A stretch of 64,000 nt of DNA from Escherichia phage Av-05, in sequence record KM190144; one strand, given 5' to 3'. The stretch's first letter is position 1. Each line of letters starts with the position of its first letter. Shown one piece after another: positions 2,222 through 50,513 of the stretch. The notes below the pieces were generated by a model. That model was not told the DNA's origin. It did not search any database and was given only the letters and a program-made list of their open reading frames with translations. The position numbers and the translations under genes are program-made.

Positions 2222-3283
2222 TTAATCATTCATCTTATCCCAGCACATTTGTTGCGCTGTCATCAAAACATCGGCAGCAAAGTTAAGATCTGTTGTCTTC
2301 GGTAAATGCGTGTTCTTGTACAGAGTGTTACGAATATAATCATCCTTCTCTTCTGCCCAAGCCAAGAGCTTCTCCAAAGACCATGCACCATTCCTGATTG
2401 CAAGAAGCTCCTGAGCATCAGGTCTTTTTACTAAGACTTTACCTTCTGCTAAGATCTCCTCAGCCATACGCATCAATCTTACCAAATGGAGGGCATGTTT
2501 GCAATCGTACCCGTACTTTTCTTCTAACTCATGCCGGACCGGATTTCTGTTTTCAACCCATGCCCAGTAGTTCTTATGCTTTTCCTTCGCTTGTTTATGG
2601 TCATCTGCCAGATATTTAACGATTAAAATTGGCTTACGTTTCTTATCCTCGTCAGAGAACTGCTCGTATGGAACTTTACGAATAGAACCATCAGAGTTAA
2701 ACAAACCAGCGTTGTCATGTGTACCAATCACACCATAGATATTATCACCCATCGGCAAAAAGACACACAACTTATTAAGGTCATCCAGCATTTTCTGGAA
2801 GTCTTTATGTTTTGTAAGATTATCATCCATCCACGAGTGTGTCAAGCGCATGAACTCTTTTTGTGTTGGTTGCTCTTTAGGTTGCGGGTTATTAATCCAT
2901 TTATTATGGCCTTTGATACGCTTAAGTTGCGCCATCGCGTACCCAGAAAATGTAAAAGCAACTTTGCTTGATAGAAGTTTTGGCGCTTGCTCGCGTAGGT
3001 ACTCGTAAACATCTGAAGTTTGCAGAATGTCACCTCTATCAACAAACATAAGCTCGATAATGTTTGGGTTCATATCAACGAACAGCTTCATATAGTTTGT
3101 TAGCTCATACAGCTTACCATCCTCTTCATCAATAAGAGTCATCTCCCTGTCAACGAAAAATGGGGTAAGAATGCTTTTAGGCTCTGCACAATAAATTCCG
3201 CGAATATCCACATCGGATGTTGGCAAGTTAGTTCCATAGGCAATACTGCCGGAGTAACAACGCATTAGTTCTAGTTTCTTCAT
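2222..3283 (-). CDS. Pol-beta superfamily nucleotidyltransferase
   Basis: N-terminal GSIAYGTNLPTSDVDIRG (GS...hG[ST]...SDxD minimal NTase motif); 353 aa. Confidence 0.5.
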   Translation of the reverse strand: MKKLELMRCYSGSIAYGTNLPTSDVDIRGIYCAEPKSILTPFFVDREMTLIDEEDGKLYELTNYMKLFVDMNPNIIELMFVDRGDILQTSDVYEYLREQAPKLLSSKVAFTFSGYAMAQLKRIKGHNKWINNPQPKEQPTQKEFMRLTHSWMDDNLTKHKDFQKMLDDLNKLCVFLPMGDNIYGVIGTHDNAGLFNSDGSIRKVPYEQFSDEDKKRKPILIVKYLADDHKQAKEKHKNYWAWVENRNPVRHELEEKYGYDCKHALHLVRLMRMAEEILAEGKVLVKRPDAQELLAIRNGAWSLEKLLAWAEEKDDYIRNTLYKNTHLPKTTDLNFAADVLMTAQQMCWDKMND

Positions 3284-4551: not shown

Positions 4552-4766
4552 TTTTGTTTCTTCCTCAAAATTATCCGTTCAGGACTGAAAAATTCTTTCA
4601 AACACAGGAAGATGGCTAATGCGCCACCCAACCACCAAAAAGGTATCAACAGCAAAGCAGGTATTAAGTCCTCTCCTGTGATACAATCCTGTGTTTTATA
4701 GGTCATGGTAAGAAATACACCTGCTGCTACTATCCCAGCAACCACATACAAGATCAGTTCAATCAT
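4548..4766 (-). CDS. Small membrane protein
   Basis: 72 aa, two hydrophobic helices. Confidence 0.4.
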   Translation of the reverse strand: MIELILYVVAGIVAAGVFLTMTYKTQDCITGEDLIPALLLIPFWWLGGALAIFLCLKEFFSPERIILRKKQK

Positions 4767-5079
4767 TATCCCGTTTCTCCAGAAACGCTTTCACCGCAAG
4801 AGCCGCAGCGTAAATTGCCACAAGACAAATACAAAATGTGAAAATAATAGGTAAAACCATTACCGCAAACATCATAAACAGTGGTCCTGCAACAGTAACG
4901 AATGCTGTTCCAAGCAACAATAGAAATACCACATATTTATCTGCCGTCTCATCCACCTTCTTAAGATACACACCTAAACACACAGAAGACAACAGGAATG
5001 ACAGAATGGACAGCAATAGATACCAATTATCAATAAAGATGATAATTGGACCAGCAACATTTTCTAGCCACCACATCAT
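4759..5079 (-). CDS. Membrane protein
   Basis: 106 aa, strongly hydrophobic. Confidence 0.4.
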   Translation of the reverse strand: MMWWLENVAGPIIIFIDNWYLLLSILSFLLSSVCLGVYLKKVDETADKYVVFLLLLGTAFVTVAGPLFMMFAVMVLPIIFTFCICLVAIYAAALAVKAFLEKRDND

Positions 5080-5093
5080 ATATACTTACCTCT

Positions 5094-6350
5094 TTAGAAT
5101 AACATATCTCTGCTGATTGCTTTACGAATAGCATCAATACGGGCTACTCGCACAGCCTCACCAATCTCTTTACCCTTCTTACCTTTTTCCAGAAGGGGTT
5201 TTGTTATAGCTTTAGAATCAACTTTTGTCATAGCGTCGTAGGCTTCCAACAAAATATGACCCTGAGGATAAGGTTTATGTCTAAAATCACCACCTCTCCC
5301 TTTAGCATCACAATAACACGCATCTGCAAGTGTGTAAACCTTTATTTTCTGATCAGCTTGTCCAGCAGCTTCAAATATTTTCATGATGCTTTTTGGTTTC
5401 AAACCGTTGTTACCATCTTTGGGGGAGATGGCGTGCACTTTTGTGTGATTTTCCGCAACATATTTTGCCGTGTCACGATAGATATTATAAATCTTCAACC
5501 TTTCACACAAGGATTGGATAACATCTACACCAGCTTTTTCATGACCATGAAGATTACCATTGTCCTTATGAGTCACAGCTTTGCCAAAATCATGGCACAG
5601 CACAGCAAACTTGGTCAGTGGATCAGCTCCTAATTCATCAGCAACCCGTAACGCTAGAATTGTATGGGTGTAAGCATCCCCTTCTGGGTGATGTTCTTTA
5701 GGTTGTTGCACACCACGTAGGGCTTCCAGTTCAGGGAGTTCGCCAATACGTCCCATATTGACAGCAAAAGATCTGAAATAACCACTCTTTAAGGCTTTCA
5801 ACATTTCCTTCCATTTACGCTCGGCGCTTATTTCTGCCAAAGAGTGTCGGTTGTCATAAGCCAGTTTAAAAGTTTCTGGATGGATATGCCATTCTTCCCC
5901 AAGCTGGGCTTTAAATCTAAACAGGCGTAGAATACGTAATGGATCTTCAATAAATGCCTGTGATGTATGACGTAATGTTTTAAGTCCTAAGTCAACCTGA
6001 CCACCAAAAGGATCTATAATTTCACCACTCTCAACATCCATCGCCATGGAATTGATGGTTAGGTCTCTACGTGCCAAATCCTCTTCCAGAGTTACATCTG
6101 GACTAAAGCATACCTCAAATCCTTTATGGCCTTCACCTGTTTTTCTTTCTGTGCGTGCAAGAGCGTACTCTTCTCTTGTTTCTGGGTGAAGATAAACTGG
6201 AAAAGATGCGCCAACTTGTGTGAACCCTCTTTTCAACATCTCTTCATGCGTAGCACCAACAACCACATAATCACGGTCTGATATTTCACGACCTAACAAT
6301 TTATCTCTTACTGCGCCACCTACCAAGTATACCTTCATTTCTTCGCCCAC
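5094..6350 (-). CDS. cca: tRNA nucleotidyltransferase (CCA-adding enzyme) with HD domain
   Basis: MKVYLVGGAVRDKLLG...DRD head motif, RRDLTINS, HD motif HHPEGDAYTHT...CHDFGK; probable ATG at 6338 (track GTG 6350). Confidence 0.8.
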   Translation of the reverse strand: MGEEMKVYLVGGAVRDKLLGREISDRDYVVVGATHEEMLKRGFTQVGASFPVYLHPETREEYALARTERKTGEGHKGFEVCFSPDVTLEEDLARRDLTINSMAMDVESGEIIDPFGGQVDLGLKTLRHTSQAFIEDPLRILRLFRFKAQLGEEWHIHPETFKLAYDNRHSLAEISAERKWKEMLKALKSGYFRSFAVNMGRIGELPELEALRGVQQPKEHHPEGDAYTHTILALRVADELGADPLTKFAVLCHDFGKAVTHKDNGNLHGHEKAGVDVIQSLCERLKIYNIYRDTAKYVAENHTKVHAISPKDGNNGLKPKSIMKIFEAAGQADQKIKVYTLADACYCDAKGRGGDFRHKPYPQGHILLEAYDAMTKVDSKAITKPLLEKGKKGKEIGEAVRVARIDAIRKAISRDMLF

Positions 6351-39539: not shown

Positions 39540-39946
39540 TATGCAAAATAAACTGTTGCCACGCCGTTATAGTGGTCAAACGATACGGCGTTTACTTCAT
39601 AGCTGGCCGGGAGCTTCGAGCCGAGAACGTATCTGGGCCACGTATTCCATGGAGTTTCTATACCCTTACCATTTTTATATACGACACATCCAAGCGAACC
39701 TACAACCTCCCCAGAACGTTTGCCACATGTTACGAAACCTATATTTTTGTTGCTGTCATTAATAACTATTTGGTCATACCTGACTGATGCATTAGCAGCA
39801 CGCTGTGCCAGTTGAGTTGCGATATTCGTAGAGTTCGCAGCAGCCACAGTAGCCATGGTCGCGGCGGTAGATGCCATAATAGCCGTTGAAGCCTGCACCT
39901 GTTGGGTAATTGTCAGCAATGCCGCTGCAAAAATGATCTTCTTCAC
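39536..39946 (-). CDS. Secreted (signal-peptide) early protein
   Basis: MKKIIFAAALLTITQQVQA signal peptide with AxA-type cleavage site. Confidence 0.45.
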   Translation of the reverse strand: MKKIIFAAALLTITQQVQASTAIMASTAATMATVAAANSTNIATQLAQRAANASVRYDQIVINDSNKNIGFVTCGKRSGEVVGSLGCVVYKNGKGIETPWNTWPRYVLGSKLPASYEVNAVSFDHYNGVATVYFAY

Positions 39947-45461: not shown

Positions 45462-46100
45462 TTACTCTGATATAGGGTCTGTTTTTGATCTTCTTTTCTG
45501 GACTTTCTTGGGTCTTCCTGTGATATGTGACCATGAGTATCCATTATTTAAAGAAGATATTGTATTTCTGGAAACTCCGAATAGTTCCGCAATAGCTTTG
45601 TGTGTTATCCCACAATCAATAAGCCGTACAATCTCTAAAACTTTCTCCTTTGTAAGGACAGATAAATGATAATCATCACCAAATTTTTGGATTCTCCCCA
45701 TACTATAAGCCACTGTATTGTTATGGCTATAGGTACACCACTCAAGATTTTCAACTCTATTATTATGTCTGTTACCATCTATGTGGTTTATAATTGGAAC
45801 TCCTAGCACAGTTTTTCTGCATTCTTTCTGCAATTCTGGAGAAGGAGGCTCTTTAAAAGCCTCCGCTACAAGTCTATGGACTGAAAAACTTTTCCCTGAA
45901 TCTTTACCCCTTTTGTACAAGCACACGCTCGGATAGCATTGTGGAGATAAATTTTCACTTTTAGTTTTTAAATATTTCCACATTCCTGATTTAAAAGATC
46001 TTACATTTCCATAATTACTTACTTGATAATCAGGATACCCTACAATATCCTTCCAAATTTCCTCTACTTCATCAGTGGGAATCTGCCCATGTGTATCCAC
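45462..46100 (-). CDS. Free-standing HNH homing endonuclease (NUMOD4-like N-terminus)
   Basis: GYPDYQVSNYGNVRS motif and NHIDGNRHNNRVENLEW HNH motif; GTG start overlaps 3' end of polymerase exon 3. Confidence 0.65.
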   Translation of the reverse strand: MDTHGQIPTDEVEEIWKDIVGYPDYQVSNYGNVRSFKSGMWKYLKTKSENLSPQCYPSVCLYKRGKDSGKSFSVHRLVAEAFKEPPSPELQKECRKTVLGVPIINHIDGNRHNNRVENLEWCTYSHNNTVAYSMGRIQKFGDDYHLSVLTKEKVLEIVRLIDCGITHKAIAELFGVSRNTISSLNNGYSWSHITGRPKKVQKRRSKTDPISE

Positions 46101-46371
46101 AAAGATATTCTCCTGTAATTAAAACGGGAAGCCCCATTATCTTAGACGCTTTTTCTACACATTTTGTTGCAAGCTCTCCTACTGGGCAATGCAGTATCCT
46201 GTATTTCCCATACACATCAGGTTCAACAATAACTTTACCTGCTTTCACATAATGTCCGTCGAAACGATGGCCTTTTTCAAGCATCATATCTACATAGCTT
46301 TGTGCAGCCTCTAAGTTAGAATGCTCCGTTATTGATTTAAATCTTTCCGGTACTTGTACCTGTATCTCATC
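46072..46371 (-). CDS. DNA polymerase (family A), exon 3
   Basis: Begins DEIQV (completes motif C as ...YYH|DEIQV) and ends GLPVLITGEYLCGYTWADSH, like Pol I/T7 pol C-terminus. Confidence 0.6.
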   Translation of the reverse strand, partial: DEIQVQVPERFKSITEHSNLEAAQSYVDMMLEKGHRFDGHYVKAGKVIVEPDVYGKYRILHCPVGELATKCVEKASKIMGLPVLITGEYLCGYTWADSH

Positions 46372-47214
46372 CACTAGTTCAAGGAGTTCGCTACTCTCCC
46401 CCGCACCGTTACGTGCATAGCCACAAGATTTCTCCTGTGGGTCAGACTATATCATAACCCTTTTTCAAGGGTTCCTCCCGTTTGGACCGCGCTTGCTGGC
46501 CTACTCTACTCGCTTCTTCACATCAGATGAAGCTGATGCTATGCTTTCGATAGTCGTTGAACGTCACTTACCAAGTATAGTCTTTAGAGATATGCACCCA
46601 CAATCTCCGTTGTTTAATTCCTTTTACGGATGGGTAGGGGTATCCGAGATCTCTAATCTCGCATTGCCTTAGCCCTGACTGTAGCAATTCACAAATCTCT
46701 CTCACATCTTTTTCTGTGAGAATGGCATTCGCATTGTTTTCACCAATAGGTATAACACGTAATCCTGTATCGTAAGCATGTTTTATATTGCTGCCATGTG
46801 TCCCCCACTCAAGATTCCACGCTGCGTTATTAAGTTTGTTTCCATCTTTATGATTAACGCTGGTGAATCTTTCTGGATCTGGATTAGGCACAAAACATTC
46901 TGCCACCATCCGATGTATGGCTTTCGTACAGGACTTACCGTCTATCCTTATAATTGTACACAGATATCCCCTCCCATTATCAAATACCTGCAAGGGAAGT
47001 TTATCTCTTTTTGAAAGAGGCGTGGAACCATCTTCAAAAACTGTATACCCATGGTAATCTTTTGCTTTTACCATTTTACTATACCTCTTTAAGTTTTCGC
47101 TGCGGATTGGCATATTGTCCTTATAACACAATACATTATAAGAATCAACTTAGCTTTCCCGACAATTAGAGAGGTTTTCGACATGCATTACTGCATGAAG
47201 CCACAATGTTATTT
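46372..47214 (-). mobile_element. Group-I-intron-like insertion 2 in DNA polymerase gene, with HNH ORF
   Basis: Splits motif C; minus strand has R-like GTTCAACGACTA and S-like ATGATATAGTC elements; 5' exon ends U, insertion ends G. Confidence 0.55.
46568..47131 (-). CDS. Intron-encoded HNH homing endonuclease
   Basis: VNHKDGNKLNNAAWNLEWGTHGSN HNH motif; 187 aa inside insertion 2. Confidence 0.65.
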   Translation of the reverse strand: MCYKDNMPIRSENLKRYSKMVKAKDYHGYTVFEDGSTPLSKRDKLPLQVFDNGRGYLCTIIRIDGKSCTKAIHRMVAECFVPNPDPERFTSVNHKDGNKLNNAAWNLEWGTHGSNIKHAYDTGLRVIPIGENNANAILTEKDVREICELLQSGLRQCEIRDLGYPYPSVKGIKQRRLWVHISKDYTW

Positions 47215-47547
47215 ATGGTAGTAGATAACCCTTCTGACACCCTGGTCGTACCATCCCCGTTTCACCAATTCCCAATGGAACAGGACTCCCATGAGGTCAA
47301 ACAATGAAGCACCACCGTTTTGTTGGTAAGCATTCAGCAGAGAATGTTTAGAACGAGTCCAAATTTTACGCCCATCCATACCTGGAATATAGCGTCTCCC
47401 ATTTGCCTCCCAGAATTTTTCTAACCACTCCCTACGCATTTTCAACCCGAAGTTACTATCCCAGAATGCGTCTATTACAGCCTGTGCTCTATTAAGGGGG
47501 ATACCCAGCATTGCGGCTATCTTAGGAGCTTGTGCTCCATACATGAT
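47215..47547 (-). CDS. DNA polymerase (family A), exon 2
   Basis: IMYGAQAPKIAAMLG...YIPGMDGRKIWTRSKHSLLNAYQQNGGASL parallels T7 gp5 region FLYGAG...IKGLDGRKVHVRSPHAALNTLLQSAG. Confidence 0.6.
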
Positions 47548-48281
47548 CATATTGTTCAACATGGCTCGCTACACCATGCCCGTCCTTTTAGGAACTGCTA
47601 CATATTTCTATGCAGATCAGACTATATCTTCATCCTTTTCAGGATGCCCACCGCTTCGGCAGTCTGAAAGACTGGAGGTTTCCCTCACCGCTTGGCCCTA
47701 CGCCTTTCGGCTAGTCGTTGAAGTTTCGAATGCTTCCCAACATTTATGTTCTATTTGATGGCATTTTTTACAAAGTAATTCAAAATTACTTATTTCGTTA
47801 TTCGTCCTGTCATGGTCAATATGATGAACGCACCATTCATCTTTACCTGCATAAAGAAGATCTTTATTACATCTATTACAGTATCTTCTCTGTTCCTTTA
47901 TGACAGGGGATAACTTACGAAACATCGATATGCCATTTTTATAAAATTTGGACAATTTCCCACGAGGCTGCCCACCACCTTTTCCTATGCCAACTCTGTC
48001 AAGCCTATTTTCTCTTTCGGCCTTTCTGCGTCTATATTCTCTGGTTTTTATCTTTGAATATTCTCTTCTACAACCTTCAGAGAGACATACTTTTTGATTT
48101 TTACCAGTTTTAACACATTGTTCACCGCAGATTATACAACAAAATGTGCCCATATTCTCCCTCCTTTTGTAAGAGGGAAGCATTCGCTTACCTGCTGATT
48201 ATCTTCGACATAACTCGGTCAGATTTCCCAGCAATTCAATGGGTGCACCTTACAAATTACTTTGTAAGGGGGCTATCATTA
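47548..48281 (-). mobile_element. Group-I-intron-like insertion 1 in DNA polymerase gene, with HNH ORF
   Basis: Splits motif B region; R-like CTTCAACGACTA and S-like GAAGATATAGTC on minus strand; TAATGATAG stops in all frames right after exon 1. Confidence 0.55.
47698..48183 (-). CDS. Intron-encoded HNH endonuclease (Cys-rich zinc-finger N-terminus)
   Basis: CVHHIDHDRTNNEISNFELLCKKCHQIEH HNH motif; GGAGGGAG RBS. Confidence 0.65.
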   Translation of the reverse strand: MLPSYKRRENMGTFCCIICGEQCVKTGKNQKVCLSEGCRREYSKIKTREYRRRKAERENRLDRVGIGKGGGQPRGKLSKFYKNGISMFRKLSPVIKEQRRYCNRCNKDLLYAGKDEWCVHHIDHDRTNNEISNFELLCKKCHQIEHKCWEAFETSTTSRKA

Positions 48282-50318
48282 ACCATACGTAATCCCCTTT
48301 CCTCCAGAGCGTGTTACCTCCTTTCCTGCTGCTATTGTGTATGCTCTTGCGTTTCGTTCATGGGCATCCTCTTCCATCATGATACGTAAATACTCACCAC
48401 CATCAAACTCAAAAGCCCCTGCTGCAGCAATCATACCTTCTAAGTTAGACCCGTCACAACCCATCAGGTAGTAGCCTTCAGGGACTGTCCAAAGACCCCG
48501 CATTTCTTTTCCCAACAAAACCTTCGGATCAGGCTTGGGCATGTTTGCGCAAACAGTGTGCTTGCACCTGCCCGTGTTAGTGATTCCAGAAAAACGTGCT
48601 GGAAGTTTTCCGTCAATGTCTAAACGAGGGTGATTTAATAACCCTGTATCCGTCTTGTCCTCATCCATTGGGTCTAAAACAGATCGCCTGTTACGAAGTG
48701 ATAACCACTTAACAATCTGTTTTGCCATATGCACATCAATTTTCTCCAGATTTGGACACAGATGCCCAAAATTATCTTTTAGTTGAGGAGATGTCGGTAA
48801 CTGGCGTGCCTTACGCCGAAATTTCTTAAATATCTCTGAATAACCTCTTTCAGATGCATGTCGATGGTCAAACTTACGCTCTGAAATGTTGAATTTCTCA
48901 TCTGAATCATTAAGGTAGTCAAGAATAAGAGATTTATACTCAGACTCAGCCAACTCTTCTATGTACTTCTTAACTAGTACATCAATTTCAGAATCTTCTC
49001 TGGCCTTTTTAAATTGATCCTTCGTAACGTCCTTTACACGCCACAGTGTAGGTTTCCAACCAGCATCTTTGATCAGATATTTTTTAATGTCATCTTGATT
49101 GGAGATTTTCATTGGAACCATTAAATCTGGCATTTTTCTGTTTCGAAGGTCTTCTTTAGCCTTCTCTAGAAGATCCGGCGGCAAAGGTTCGAGTGTGTTC
49201 TCTTTGGTTCGCTGGGAACGAATGAAATTACCGTATAAAGCCGGATCTTCAATGCCATTCTGGATGCAATATCTCTCCCCTGCTGCACTTACATCCCCAT
49301 TACTCTTAAAAGCTGTTTTTGGTGGGGCTTTAAACTCTAGAGCTTCTCTGTTAACAGGATAACCAAGTTTATATTCCAACCAATTCCACCCATGATAAGA
49401 TATATTACCCGCTGTGTCAAAAGGGTTAGCTGGGAATTTTGGTTGTTGGGATTTCGTCATCTCTTTTTTTGGAAGAAGTGGTTCTACCTCTTCTTCAATC
49501 TCCCGCATCATCTTATCTATGCGGTCTCTTAATTTTTCTGCCTCCTCTCGATTAAAGTATACACCCTGTATTTCTTGCTCTATCATCAAATAGTCTGTGA
49601 GCATTCTCCTACGTAATGCATTTTTCCAATTAATCTGGTGCATCCCGTGAGGTTTATCAGCATACATGAACTGCTTGTCATCAGGCCATCGCGTACCATT
49701 TGACTCGTCAATAAGAGCTTTCCACACAAGTTCGTTAATGATAACGTCTTCCCACACACGGTTTACATATTCCCACAATGGTTGATTACGCCAATCATCA
49801 ATCTGTACTTTCTTGTTTGCCACACGATAACCCCATGCCAATAAGCCGTGTGGCCCAACCCTATCACGTTTTCCTGTTACAGGGTTTAATACAGAGTCTG
49901 GGCAGCCATTAGGCAATGGGCGATCTGGGTAAAGAACACGACTCATTGAAAGAGTGTCGTAAAGATTTACCTGTTTATTACCTATCGTCCCCATACATTT
50001 TGGGTCTTTGAACATATCATATTCAATCCCAGAAAGTTTTTTCCACAGACGTAAATCATAGCCAAACAGGTTATGTATTGCTATCCCTCTTGGTTCGGTC
50101 TGTAACCAAGAGTAAAAATCATCATAAGAAAGGATTCGTAAATTAACACCTTCTTTGCTGCGTGCAAAATTAACTGCACTCTGGTATTCCTTGTGAGCAG
50201 GATCGAGAAACAACACCCAGTTATTTACAGCATATTCTTTAAAAAGTGTGCAGTGATATTTAGTTGCCTCTTCTAATAATCCGTCAGCCTCTGTATCGGC
50301 TAAAAAAAGTCCTTTCAT
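48282..50318 (-). CDS. DNA polymerase (family A, T7-like), exon 1 (3'-5' exo plus N-terminal polymerase part)
   Basis: Exo I motif FLADTEADGL; motif A region CDGSNLE; ends ...RSGGKGITYG; AGGAGG RBS before ATG 50318 (track start 50360 upstream of RBS). Confidence 0.65.
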
Positions 50319-50513
50319 ACTCCTCCTATTCAAGATGGGCTTGACTGTATCGTCGCCCATCTCTTAGTTGGTTATAGATTATGTGGAAAACTACCTATTT
50401 TTGATTTATGTTTCTTTGCCAAAGGGCTTCTCTTGGCGGGAATGTATCCCTCAAGCCCCTTGGCAACACGAATAGCTAACTCATCATATTTTACATGTAT
50501 CCTCTTTTTTCTC

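Follow-up and report, generated by a model that had tools for sequence, protein, structure and literature searches.

The 64-kb window (the whole stretch of DNA analysed, 64,000 nucleotides) contains a minus-strand gene for a T7-like DNA polymerase of family A, composed of three exons and two group I introns. We consider it very probable (roughly 92%) that both insertions are mobile, phase-0 introns of the IA2 type that are spliced from the polymerase pre-mRNA to restore a 903-codon open reading frame. The source phage is a myophage of the Vequintavirinae (rV5-like, Avunavirus-type). Its nearest records, at 97% identity, are those of Escherichia phages 18-1-2, 19-1-2, 24-2-1 and TH18, among which 18-1-2, the sole one of the four that was retrieved, is classified as Vequintavirinae/Avunavirus. 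The exons, introns, intron elements and endonuclease genes described below all lie on the minus strand.

Exon boundaries and the restored polymerase reading frame

Exon 1 (48282–50360; 693 codons) ends in GGG ATT ACG TAT GGT, encoding GITYG, and exon 2 (47215–47547; 111 codons) runs from IMYGAQ to VIYYH, the last base of each being U. Exon 3 (46072–46371) encodes DEIQVQV...ADSH and closes with a stop codon at 46074–46072; in the GenBank record of 18-1-2, polymerase exon 3 is left without any annotation. Intron 1 (47548–48281; 734 nt) opens with three in-frame stop codons, UAA UGA UAG, and ends in AACAAUAUG, while intron 2 (46372–47214; 843 nt) starts AAA UAA and ends in GAACUAGUG. Excision of both introns yields a single 903-aa polymerase ORF with zero internal stops. 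The spliced product matches T7 DNA polymerase with an E-value of 8e-14 (PDB 1SKR and others), and the alignment runs unbroken across both junctions, KTFIYGFLYGAG and WVHDEIQV. Both insertion sites are in phase 0: site 1 separates the G codon from the I codon in polymerase motif B (ITYG/IMYGAQ), and site 2 separates the H codon from the D codon in motif C (YYH/DEIQV). In tblastn searches with the spliced polymerase as query, HSPs break exactly at residues 693/694 and 804/805 across 13 loci, and the relatives' matches to the spliced product all break at 693/694.

The intron ends were set by natural intron-less alleles: at site 1 that of FFH2, where the sequence is uninterrupted (GKPITYGVMYGAQ) and reads ITYGVMYGAQ, and at site 2 that of NDO71, where window position 47215 is joined directly to 46371. 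These alleles fix the single-base features that the initial annotation had pointed out as expected of group I splice sites, namely upstream exons ending in T (48282 and 47215) and insertions ending in G (47548 and 46372). Occupancy of the two sites varies among relatives: NDO71 and KpS11 carry intron 1 only, FFH2, APECc02 and rV5 carry intron 2 only, and the window phage, SSE121 and Pectobacterium phage CB7 carry both. Intron 2 contains an ORF in the window phage, FFH2 and APECc02 and is without one in 18-1-2, rV5, JEP1 and JLBYU08, the ORF-less site 2 introns of the relatives measuring 276–329 nt. Such presence/absence polymorphism at fixed sites among related genomes is what marks an intron as mobile. 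The record GE_vB_MG (UNVERIFIED, with intron indels) was excluded from the alignments. The N4-like phage PhAPEC5, considered as a guide to the insertion sites, shares a short intron stretch, but its polymerase is unrelated and it was uninformative.

Ribozyme architecture of the two introns

The R/S-like motifs reported in the initial annotation are all four present at the minus-strand coordinates given there. In intron 1, the R element (47712–47723; CUUCAACGACUA) contributes the P7 5' strand GACUA (47716–47712), and the S element (47620–47631; GAAGAUAUAGUC) provides J8/7 and the P7 3' strand UAGUC (47624–47620). In intron 2, the R element (46551–46562; GUUCAACGACUA) and the S element (46445–46455; AUGAUAUAGUC) supply the corresponding strands GACUA (46555–46551) and UAGUC (46449–46445). 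R and S lie about 81 nt apart in insertion 1 and about 96 nt apart in insertion 2. The word TTCAACGACTA occurs exactly at 46551–46561 and 47712–47722, with one other match at no more than one mismatch in 64 kb, at 39880. The word GATATAGTC, present at 46445–46453 and 47620–47628, matches four times in the window, where 0.48 matches would be expected; 0 of 100 shuffles yield as many. Considered as a third intron, TTCAACGGCTA at 39880–39890 sits in a small signal-peptide ORF with no S partner and was discarded as a chance match.

The probability that these are chance R/S-like words beside endonuclease genes, or that the insertions are inteins instead of introns, is negligible. The motifs are merely 9–12 nt long and the near-match at 39880 does show that chance can produce one, yet the exact 11-mers occur twice and nowhere else in the window, and the full-length structure, the covariation and the Rfam scores of ORF-less orthologues presented below refute a chance origin. 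Inteins are excluded because translation would meet stop codons directly past each 5' junction, with none of the three frames open.

Both introns contain a P3–P8 core, a P4–P6 domain, a P3/P7 pseudoknot and a P7 formed by R and S. Every helix from P1 to P10 was located in both insertions, so that the GACUA/UAGUC pairing originally proposed as P7 stands within a full group I fold. Alignment and structure were constructed manually on the window sequence, a procedure biased towards the unslid register. On this basis, the intron 2 model (96 pairs in 20 helices) has 95.9% of cells paired against 35–41% in slid controls, and the intron 1 model 97.4% against 34–43%. Compensation is extensive: 29 intron 2 pairs have changed on both sides, a number matched by 0 of 500 shuffles, and 14 compensatory pairs are seen in intron 1, for which the comparison spans only three or four independent lineages. 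These changes fall in P2, P3, P5, P6a, P7 (intron 2), P7.1, P7.2, P8, P9 and P9.2, with P3 covarying in both introns. Specifically, in P7 of intron 2 a U-A pair is replaced by C-G in 3 of 9 orthologues, and P7 reads GGCCA/UGGUC in rV5 and SSE121, giving the proposed pairing covariation support in this intron. The P3/P7 pseudoknot is needed, since a nested pairing leaves those helices only 20–40% paired. Independently run MFE folding recovered 85 of the 96 proposed intron 2 pairs, with a z of about -4. The long-range helix P6a of intron 1 (47727–48186) pairs CGAAUGCUUCCC (48186–48175) with GGGAAGCAUUCG (47738–47727) through 12 perfect base pairs that enclose the ORF; its counterpart in NDO71 and CB7, CAAAGGCUUCCC/GGGAAGCCUUUG, shows two double compensatory changes.

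The splice-site helices, for which no convincing guide pairing had been seen by eye, are found in both introns. P1 of intron 1 (48271–48284) pairs exon GGU and intron UA (48284–48280) with UAGCC (48275–48271), placing a U.G pair at the 5' splice site, and its P1-loop AUGA (48279–48276) pairs with 3' exon UCAU (47546–47543) to form P10; both helices are unchanged in 6 of 6 relatives and thus have zero covariation support. P1 of intron 2 (47201–47218) pairs exon CCAU (47218–47215) and intron AA with UUGUGG (47206–47201), again with U.G at the splice site, and the Rfam alignment puts the model P1 on identical bases. Here P10 joins the guide CAUU (47208–47205) to 3' exon GAUG (46371–46368), and the P1 and P10 pairs are essentially invariant among relatives. 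P10 is paired in 100% of cells in the relatives for both introns, each of which has the terminal G (omega-G). Being short (5–6 bp for P1, 4 bp for P10) and invariant, these helices draw their support from sequence and position alone.

Introns of subgroup IA2 are distinguished by P7.1 and P7.2 between P7 and P3', joined by G-U-A (PMC3428280). The P7.1-GUA-P7.2 arrangement is present in both introns: in intron 1, P7.1 is GCC-GAAA-GGC, followed by GUA and a P7.2 beginning GGGCC, and in intron 2 it is UCG...CGA, followed by GUAGA-GUA and the P7.2 GGCC...GGUC. P7.1 and P7.2 are 95–100% paired in relatives, with one compensatory pair each. Judged from sequence, each insertion is a complete group I intron of the IA2 type.

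A group I covariance model, the check suggested at the outset, matches both insertions, albeit below its gathering threshold. Rfam RF00028 scores 47.5 bits on intron 1 (E 2e-10, at 47598–47801) and, on intron 2, 41.1 bits for the 5' half (E 2e-8) and 24.5 bits for the 3' half (E 2e-3), and no RF00028 match in the window reaches the curated gathering threshold of 50 bits. The window scores lie just under the threshold because the P6a ORFs (about 450–510 nt) split the model match. Against the same threshold, ORF-less intron 2 orthologues score 91.2 (18-1-2), 73.7, 72.5, 64.7 and 60.8 bits; intron 1 of SSE121 scores 63.8 bits. A permissive whole-window Rfam scan returned no family besides RF00028 at E<0.1 in the 64 kb, and no tRNAs were found in the window. 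Between 45300 and 50600, promoter and terminator counts were no higher than in shuffled sequence, with no convincing minus-strand intron-internal promoter.

A fractured, unspliced gene, whose three separately translated polypeptides reassemble and whose R/S elements are relics, has a precedent in Aeh1 NrdA split by mobE and is highly improbable here. Its case draws on the relatives' GenBank records, which give each fragment a 'DNA polymerase' CDS of its own, on start codons shortly before exons 2 and 3 (ATG at 47562, GTG at 46374), and on an HNH-containing intron in another gene of CB7 that did not splice (PMC7344957). However, these putative internal starts have no preceding SD, the gene is broken within the K..YG helix and a single codon ahead of the catalytic Asp, full ribozyme cores are under compensatory evolution in both insertions, the ORF-less site 2 versions pass the Rfam threshold, and the orthologous CB7 introns do splice (PMC7344957). 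Since ORF-less introns persist at site 2, simple insertion of endonuclease genes is insufficient as an explanation.

It is also very unlikely, if slightly less so, that the insertions are decaying introns, group I by descent, of which at least one no longer self-splices and is either cofactor-dependent or lethal or leaky. The suspect changes would be the ORF in P6a of intron 2 and a P7.2 insertion of about 28 nt (47686–47660) in intron 1, which is found in the window/18-1-2 lineage and missing from NDO71, CB7 and SSE121; the sub-threshold RF00028 scores of the window point the same way. Yet the P7.2 insertion folds as two clean hairpins in a peripheral element, the core helices and conserved joining segments are all intact, both endonuclease ORFs are undamaged and keep their catalytic motifs, and for the polymerase, presumably essential, no second copy occurs among the ORFs of the 64-kb window.

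Endonuclease genes and the proposed splicing and homing

The intron 1 ORF (47701–48153) encodes a 151-aa HNH endonuclease (CxxC...HHIDHDRTNN...CxxCH) within the terminal loop of P6a. It matches the HNH endonuclease family phrog_25862 at E 5e-93 and the Pfam models HNH and HNH_3 at 20.3 and 21.8 bits, each slightly below cut-off, and its start AUG at 48153 agrees with the start that is annotated or employed for the orthologues of NDO71 and CB7. The intron 2 ORF (46571–47074), in the P6a/P6b loop, encodes a 168-aa I-HmuI-like HNH_3 endonuclease, with its SD AAAGAGG and AUG on either side of the P6b 5' strand; it scores 25.5 bits with Pfam HNH_3 (above cut-off), E 5e-35 with phrog_59, likewise an HNH endonuclease family, and E 6e-6 with I-HmuI (PDB 1U3E, residues 37–106). 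Both ORFs are intact and retain their catalytic motifs. The initial annotation had placed the R/S elements 3' of each HNH ORF, which holds for insertion 2, whose ORF stop (46570–46568) precedes R by 6 nt. For insertion 1 it needs correcting: R lies within the last codons of the ORF (...ETSTTSRKA, stop 47700–47698), so that the 3' end of the gene overlaps P6a', P6', R/P7 and P7.1. Additionally, a free-standing NUMOD4/HNH_3/HTH endonuclease ORF (45462–46100; Pfam NUMOD4 1e-10, HNH_3 8e-8, and HTH_7) abuts the polymerase gene at its 3' end. This ORF is linked to the locus and belongs to neither intron, shares 34% identity with the intron 2 ORF, and is replaced by 48 nt in 18-1-2.

Under established group I chemistry, each intron of the pre-mRNA would fold as a P1–P10 ribozyme, and an external guanosine bound in P7 would attack after the U of the P1 U.G pair. 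P10 would then align the 3' exon, and the terminal G would be swapped into the site, leading to ligation of the exons. The early in-frame stops (UAA-UGA-UAG in intron 1, AAA-UAA in intron 2) may halt ribosomes before they unfold the core. Each HNH gene lies in a long-range P6a loop and has a ribosome-binding site that is itself paired or next to paired RNA. Like I-HmuI, I-TslI and I-PfoP3I, the HNH enzymes are expected to act on polymerase alleles that lack the intron in co-infecting phages, nicking or cutting them close to the insertion site, upon which recombinational repair would copy the intron into the cut allele. The comparisons show where the introns begin and end, the reading frame they interrupt, the covarying ribozyme structure, the homology of the endonucleases and the polymorphism among relatives; catalysis by the introns of the window phage, and the activity and target of its endonucleases, are inferred.

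At this locus, the window phage differs from 18-1-2 (97% identity) by exactly two HNH_3 endonuclease cassettes, one in the P6a hairpin of intron 2 and one free-standing after the polymerase stop codon. In intron 2, 18-1-2 is without the block 47095–46565, a 17-nt hairpin standing in its place, and the ribozyme halves are 93% identical between the two phages. In other genera, intron 1 (SSE121) or intron 2 (CB7) houses a third endonuclease type along with a P5 segment that resembles a promoter. Endonuclease genes reportedly invade pre-existing introns independently of the ribozyme (the Bonocora–Shub pathway), and in collaborative homing free-standing endonucleases mobilise ORF-less introns in trans. 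It is conceivable, though we hold it only tentatively, that the window phage and 18-1-2 form a natural before/after pair in which endonucleases invade and swap between existing introns and free-standing ones mobilise ORF-less introns in trans; if so, the locus would be an unusually clear live case of both processes.

The locus matters mainly for annotation: what appears as three 'DNA polymerase' fragments and 'hypothetical proteins' is one 903-aa polymerase with two mobile introns, a correction that extends to the GenBank relatives of the window phage. The known working of such elements is unchanged by this locus. It adds two sites to one published list of phage family-A polymerase sites, in motif B after YG and in motif C before the catalytic DE, and its variant set (no intron, ORF-less intron, three endonuclease types) offers convenient material for studies of homing and modularity.

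Relation to known polymerase introns

The closest characterized system is Pectobacterium phage vB_PatM_CB7 (Certrevirus, Vequintavirinae), which is interrupted at the same two codon junctions (residues 693/694 and 804/805) and has the same layout of exon, HNH intron, exon of about 111 codons, HNH intron, exon and free-standing HNH gene. Splicing of this two-intron polymerase layout is already known, as RT-PCR with sequencing of the cDNA showed that both CB7 introns are spliced out in vivo, while one HNH-containing intron in a different CB7 gene failed to do so (PMC7344957). There, the introns were named group I only for their HNH genes; explicit secondary structures, given here for both introns, are absent from that paper, the only Vequintavirinae report found (PMC7344957). 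Intron 1 of CB7 is 68% identical to that of the window over its whole length including the ORF, but is without the P7.2 insertion. Intron 2 of CB7 differs in carrying another, shorter endonuclease gene that starts inside P5'/P4', and a different P5.

The IA2 polymerase introns of T7-like phages (PhiI/W31 type, Yersinia phage Berlin, and cyanophage Pf-WMP3 with I-PfoP3I) reside in the same host gene family. They have in common P7.1-GUA-P7.2, a UAA start and a 4-bp P10, and their HNH ORF starts in P6a and extends across P6, P7 and P7.1 (PMC3428280), features that are shared with the window. Over its P7'–P9.2 segment, intron 1 has 83% identity with the polymerase intron annotated in Berlin, whose insertion site (AKTF/IYG) lies three codons upstream of window site 1. 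The introns of Pf-WMP3 and of Bacillus-phage polymerases occupy a common site, different from those of the window (PMC3428280), and the Pf-WMP3 intron has no P2, a helix that is well supported in both window introns.

In Bacillus phage SPO1, too, a family-A polymerase gene is interrupted by a group I intron, although the host clade differs, and the likeness of its I-HmuI to the intron 2 ORF is limited to the HNH core. The SPO1 insertion site, at a PNLQNIP-like motif, is also different. The orf142 introns of Staphylococcus phage Twort are self-splicing IA2 introns, one of which has a crystal structure. The orf142 record, annotated as containing group I introns, is 76% identical to intron 1 over P8'-J8/7-P7'-P9-P9.1-P9.2 and the 3' tail; in Twort the host is a structural gene, whereas in the window it is the polymerase gene.

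Exon–intron organization of the polymerase gene

The T7-like family-A DNA polymerase gene of phage Av-05 is preceded by the primase/helicase gene (52514–50514, minus strand) and is divided into three ORF fragments by two insertions, each containing an endonuclease ORF. This region shares 97% identity with Escherichia phages 18-1-2, 19-1-2, 24-2-1 and TH18, of which 18-1-2, the relative whose record was retrieved, is classified in Vequintavirinae, genus Avunavirus; it is 70–77% identical to Klebsiella Mydovirus phages and to E. coli Vequintavirus (rV5-like) phages. In the relatives' GenBank records the polymerase fragments are entered as separate CDSs and the introns are missed. Exon 3 of 18-1-2 is unannotated (retrieved 18-1-2 locus 4714–5274), and the rV5 record places small "hypothetical proteins" over the ORF-less intron (retrieved rV5 locus 445–1044).

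The exon–intron boundaries are fixed by natural intron-less alleles and by the breaks in a tblastn comparison. Klebsiella phage NDO71 has the equivalent of window position 47215 contiguous with 46371 and thus lacks insertion 2, while E. coli phage FFH2 encodes an unbroken ...GKPITYGVMYGAQ... and thus lacks insertion 1; the spliced product breaks exactly at residues 693/694 and 804/805 in all 13 related loci searched. On the minus strand, the gene therefore comprises exon 1 (50360–48282), intron 1 (48281–47548, 734 nt), exon 2 (47547–47215), intron 2 (47214–46372, 843 nt) and exon 3 (46371–46072). Both introns are in phase 0 and, as proposed in the initial annotation, each upstream exon has U as its last base and each intron has G. 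Conceptual removal of the two introns yields a 903-aa ORF with zero internal stops, whose alignment to T7 DNA polymerase structures (E = 8e-14) is unbroken across both junctions. Junction 1 lies in motif B (T7 KTFIYGFLYGAG; window GKGITYG/IMYGAQ, the slash marking the insertion point) and junction 2 in motif C (T7 WVHDEIQV; window IYYH/DEIQV).

Intron 1 begins with UAA UGA UAG (48273–48281, minus), all three stops in frame, and intron 2 with AAA UAA (47209–47214, minus), in which the second codon is a stop. Stop codons placed right after the intron starts rule out inteins, and through them ribosomes arriving from the upstream exon would stop ahead of the ribozyme core.

Ribozyme structure, covariation and model evidence

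Full P1–P10 models of both introns were assembled by hand from the window sequence, all on the minus strand. In intron 1, P1 pairs GGU/UA (48284–48280) with UAGCC (48275–48271), P2 (48269–48261 with 48256–48248) is closed by a GUAA loop, P3 joins CCCAUU (48243–48238) to GGUGGG (47652–47647), and P4 (UGCUGG with UCAGCA) is followed by P5/P5a. P6 pairs GG with CU, P6a forms a 12-bp long-range helix around the ORF between CGAAUGCUUCCC (48186–48175) and GGGAAGCAUUCG (47738–47727), and P7 pairs GACUA (47716–47712) with UAGUC (47624–47620). P7.1 (GCC-GAAA-GGC) is followed by GUA and P7.2, P8 (CAUCCU-GAAA-AGGAUG) is followed by P9, P9.1 and P9.2, and P10 pairs AUGA (48279–48276) with exon UCAU (47546–47543). 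The 3′ strand of P7.2 carries a 28-nt insertion (47660–47686, minus) made of the hairpins GAGG-GAAA-CCUC and CAGUCU-UUC-AGACUG; it is confined to the window and 18-1-2, being absent from NDO71, KpS11, CB7 and SSE121.

In intron 2, P1 pairs CCAU/AA with UUGUGG (47218–47201), P10 pairs CAUU (47208–47205) with GAUG (46371–46368), P2 is CAUGCA-GUAA-UGCAUG, and P3 (CCUCUC, 47174–47169, with GGGAGG, 46479–46474) is followed by P4–P5b. P6/P6a/P6b (CUUA..GUAUAGU, 47093–47078, with ACUAUAC..UAAG, 46581–46567) encloses the ORF, P7 pairs 46555–46551 with 46449–46445, and P7.1, GUA, P7.2, P8, P9, P9.1 and P9.2 follow in that order. The initial annotation had reported no convincing P1 guide pairing; P1 is present in both introns, short and within the first 14–18 nt of each.

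All four R/S motifs that it had reported are found on the minus strand at the positions it gave. TTCAACGACTA has two exact copies in the 64-kb window (46551–46561 and 47712–47722), and GATATAGTC, located at 46445–46453 and 47620–47628, has four copies in the window against 0.48 expected. Their pairing is indeed P7, GACUA/UAGUC in both introns, with U-A replaced by C-G in three intron 2 sequences. The position of R 3′ of each HNH ORF holds for insertion 2 but not for insertion 1, where R lies inside the ORF's final codons (...ETSTTSRKA, stop 47700–47698). Chance occurrence of the R/S elements is ruled out by the full-length evidence. The only near-match to TTCAACGACTA in the window, the R-like word TTCAACGGCTA (39880–39890, minus), is a chance match that lies within a small ORF and has no S partner; this ORF is of secreted type, with a signal-peptide-like N-terminus (VKKIIFAAALLTITQQVQA...).

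Scanning the whole window against Rfam at gathering threshold gave zero matches. With permissive filters, the group I intron model RF00028 (threshold 50 bits) matches intron 1 at 47598–47801 (47.5 bits, E = 2e-10) and intron 2 at 46961–47224 (41.1 bits, E = 2e-8) and 46424–46728 (24.5 bits, E = 2e-3), and a search of 4227 Rfam families at E < 0.1 returned no matches in the window beyond these three. The scores stay below threshold because the ORFs interrupt the model match. ORF-less orthologues exceed it: intron 2 of 18-1-2 reaches 91.2 bits (E = 3e-22) and the ORF-less copies of JEP1, JLBYU08, rV5, EPFV3 and EcoIv14a reach 60.8–73.7 bits. Intron 1 of Salmonella phage SSE121 also exceeds it, at 63.8 bits.

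Covariation was assessed in nine intron 2 sequences with ORFs trimmed and in six intron 1 sequences representing three or four lineages. Standard pairs occupy 95.9% of 750 cells in intron 2, against 35–41% with the 3′ partners slid by 1–3 columns, and 97.4% of cells in intron 1, against 34–43% in slid controls; these percentages favour the unslid register, the structures being derived from the window, and the compensatory-pair count is independent of that bias. In intron 2, both-sided changes affect 29 of 96 pairs, a number attained in 0 of 500 shuffles, and are distributed over P2 (5/6 pairs), P3, P5–P5b, P6a, P6b, P7, P7.1b, P7.2, P8 (4/6), P9 (4/8) and P9.2. Among the 14 compensatory pairs of intron 1 are P3 (C-G replaced by U-A) and, in the long-range P6a, two double changes. 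P1 and P10 are invariant among relatives because the exon sequences are conserved, and they carry zero covariation signal. An unplanned control, in which P3/P7 were nested without the pseudoknot, lowered the pairing of those helices to 20–40%. When intron 2 is trimmed of its ORF and folded by unconstrained MFE, 85 of the 96 model pairs reappear (z ~ -4), and intron 1 gives z ~ -4.6.

These conserved, covarying ribozymes, the ORF-less inserts above the Rfam threshold and the CB7 splicing experiments contradict a fractured polymerase made as three polypeptides without splicing. Decay of the introns to a non-splicing state is unlikely, since all core elements are intact and the polymerase is presumably essential. 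Together, the interpretation of both insertions as group I introns is supported.

Intron-encoded endonucleases and signs of intron mobility

The intron 1 ORF (48153–47701, minus) encodes a 151-aa zinc-finger HNH endonuclease (MGTFCC...) that matches phrog_25862 (E = 5e-93), with Pfam HNH and HNH_3 narrowly below cut-offs. Its start is probably at 48153, a position common to NDO71 and preceded by AAGGAGG. This Shine-Dalgarno sequence lies within a hairpin, CCCUCU...GGAGGG (48177–48159, minus), that shares three bases with P6a and competes with the last three P6a pairs. NDO71 and CB7 have equivalent hairpins in the same place that differ in sequence, pointing to conserved control of the ORF's translation. 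The intron 2 ORF (47074–46571, minus) encodes a 168-aa HNH_3 endonuclease (phrog_59, E = 5e-35) homologous to I-HmuI (PDB 1U3E, E = 6e-6), the endonuclease of the SPO1 polymerase intron; its Shine-Dalgarno sequence and AUG lie on either side of the P6b 5′ strand. By analogy with phage intron endonucleases, RNA structure would restrict translation of both ORFs, and the encoded proteins would nick or cut intron-less alleles, leading to homing. A free-standing NUMOD4/HNH_3/HTH endonuclease ORF (45462–46100, minus), a paralogue of the intron 2 ORF (34% identical), overlaps the polymerase stop codon.

Across Vequintavirinae, the two sites are filled independently of each other: NDO71 and KpS11 carry intron 1 without intron 2, FFH2, APECc02 and rV5 carry intron 2 without intron 1, and the window, CB7 and SSE121 carry both. 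Intron 2 occurs with an ORF or as an ORF-less ribozyme of 276–329 nt, and three endonuclease types are distributed over the two introns. The chief remaining point of interest is this endonuclease/intron modularity between the window and near-identical 18-1-2. In place of window 47095–46565, 18-1-2 has a 17-nt P6a hairpin (CAUCCC-UAC-GGGAUG; retrieved 18-1-2 locus 4806–4822), and the flanking ribozyme halves are ~93% identical. The intron 2 ORF with its Shine-Dalgarno sequence is a discrete cassette, which looks to have been gained or lost recently and independently of the ribozyme. Additionally, 18-1-2 has 48 nt where the window has 46073–45452 and lacks the free-standing endonuclease, so that the two phages differ by a second endonuclease-gene insertion or deletion. 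Intron 1 of SSE121 (locus 2519–3201) and intron 2 of CB7 (locus 4569–5255) share a third type of endonuclease (proteins 55% identical) and have a closely similar P5 segment containing a sigma-70-like TTGACA-17-TATGAT, with the ORF start inside P5′/P4′. It appears that an endonuclease cassette moved from one of the polymerase gene's two intron sites to the other.

Relation to known phage introns

The locus belongs to a familiar type, in which a phage DNA polymerase gene contains IA2 group I introns with HNH genes, and orthologues in a sister genus are already known to splice experimentally. Specifically, Pectobacterium phage CB7 (Certrevirus) has two HNH-containing polymerase introns with adjoining free-standing HNH genes, and splicing of both was demonstrated by RT-PCR and cDNA sequencing; they were termed group I solely for their HNH genes, with no RNA structure given (PMC7344957). 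The CB7 introns occupy the same two codon junctions as those of the window, and the intron 1 sequences are 68% identical over their full length. The rV5 genome paper discusses introns in the terminase gene only.

Subgroup IA2 is defined by P7.1 and P7.2 linked by G-U-A (PMC3428280), and both introns have this P7.1-GUA-P7.2 arrangement. The intron 1 3′ domain (P7′ to 3′ end) shares 83% identity with the polymerase intron annotated in the T7-like Yersinia phage Berlin. The target region is common, but the insertion sites are distinct because the Berlin break (AKTF/IYG; retrieved Berlin locus ~901–990) precedes window site 1 (ITYG/IMYG) by three codons; these are related ribozymes at neighbouring motif B sites. 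The same 3′ domain is 76% identical to part of Twort orf142, whose CDS is annotated as containing group I introns. As here, the polymerase introns of Pf-WMP3 and PhiI/W31 combine an ORF running from P6a through P6, P7 and P7.1 with a UAA start and a 4-bp P10 (PMC3428280).
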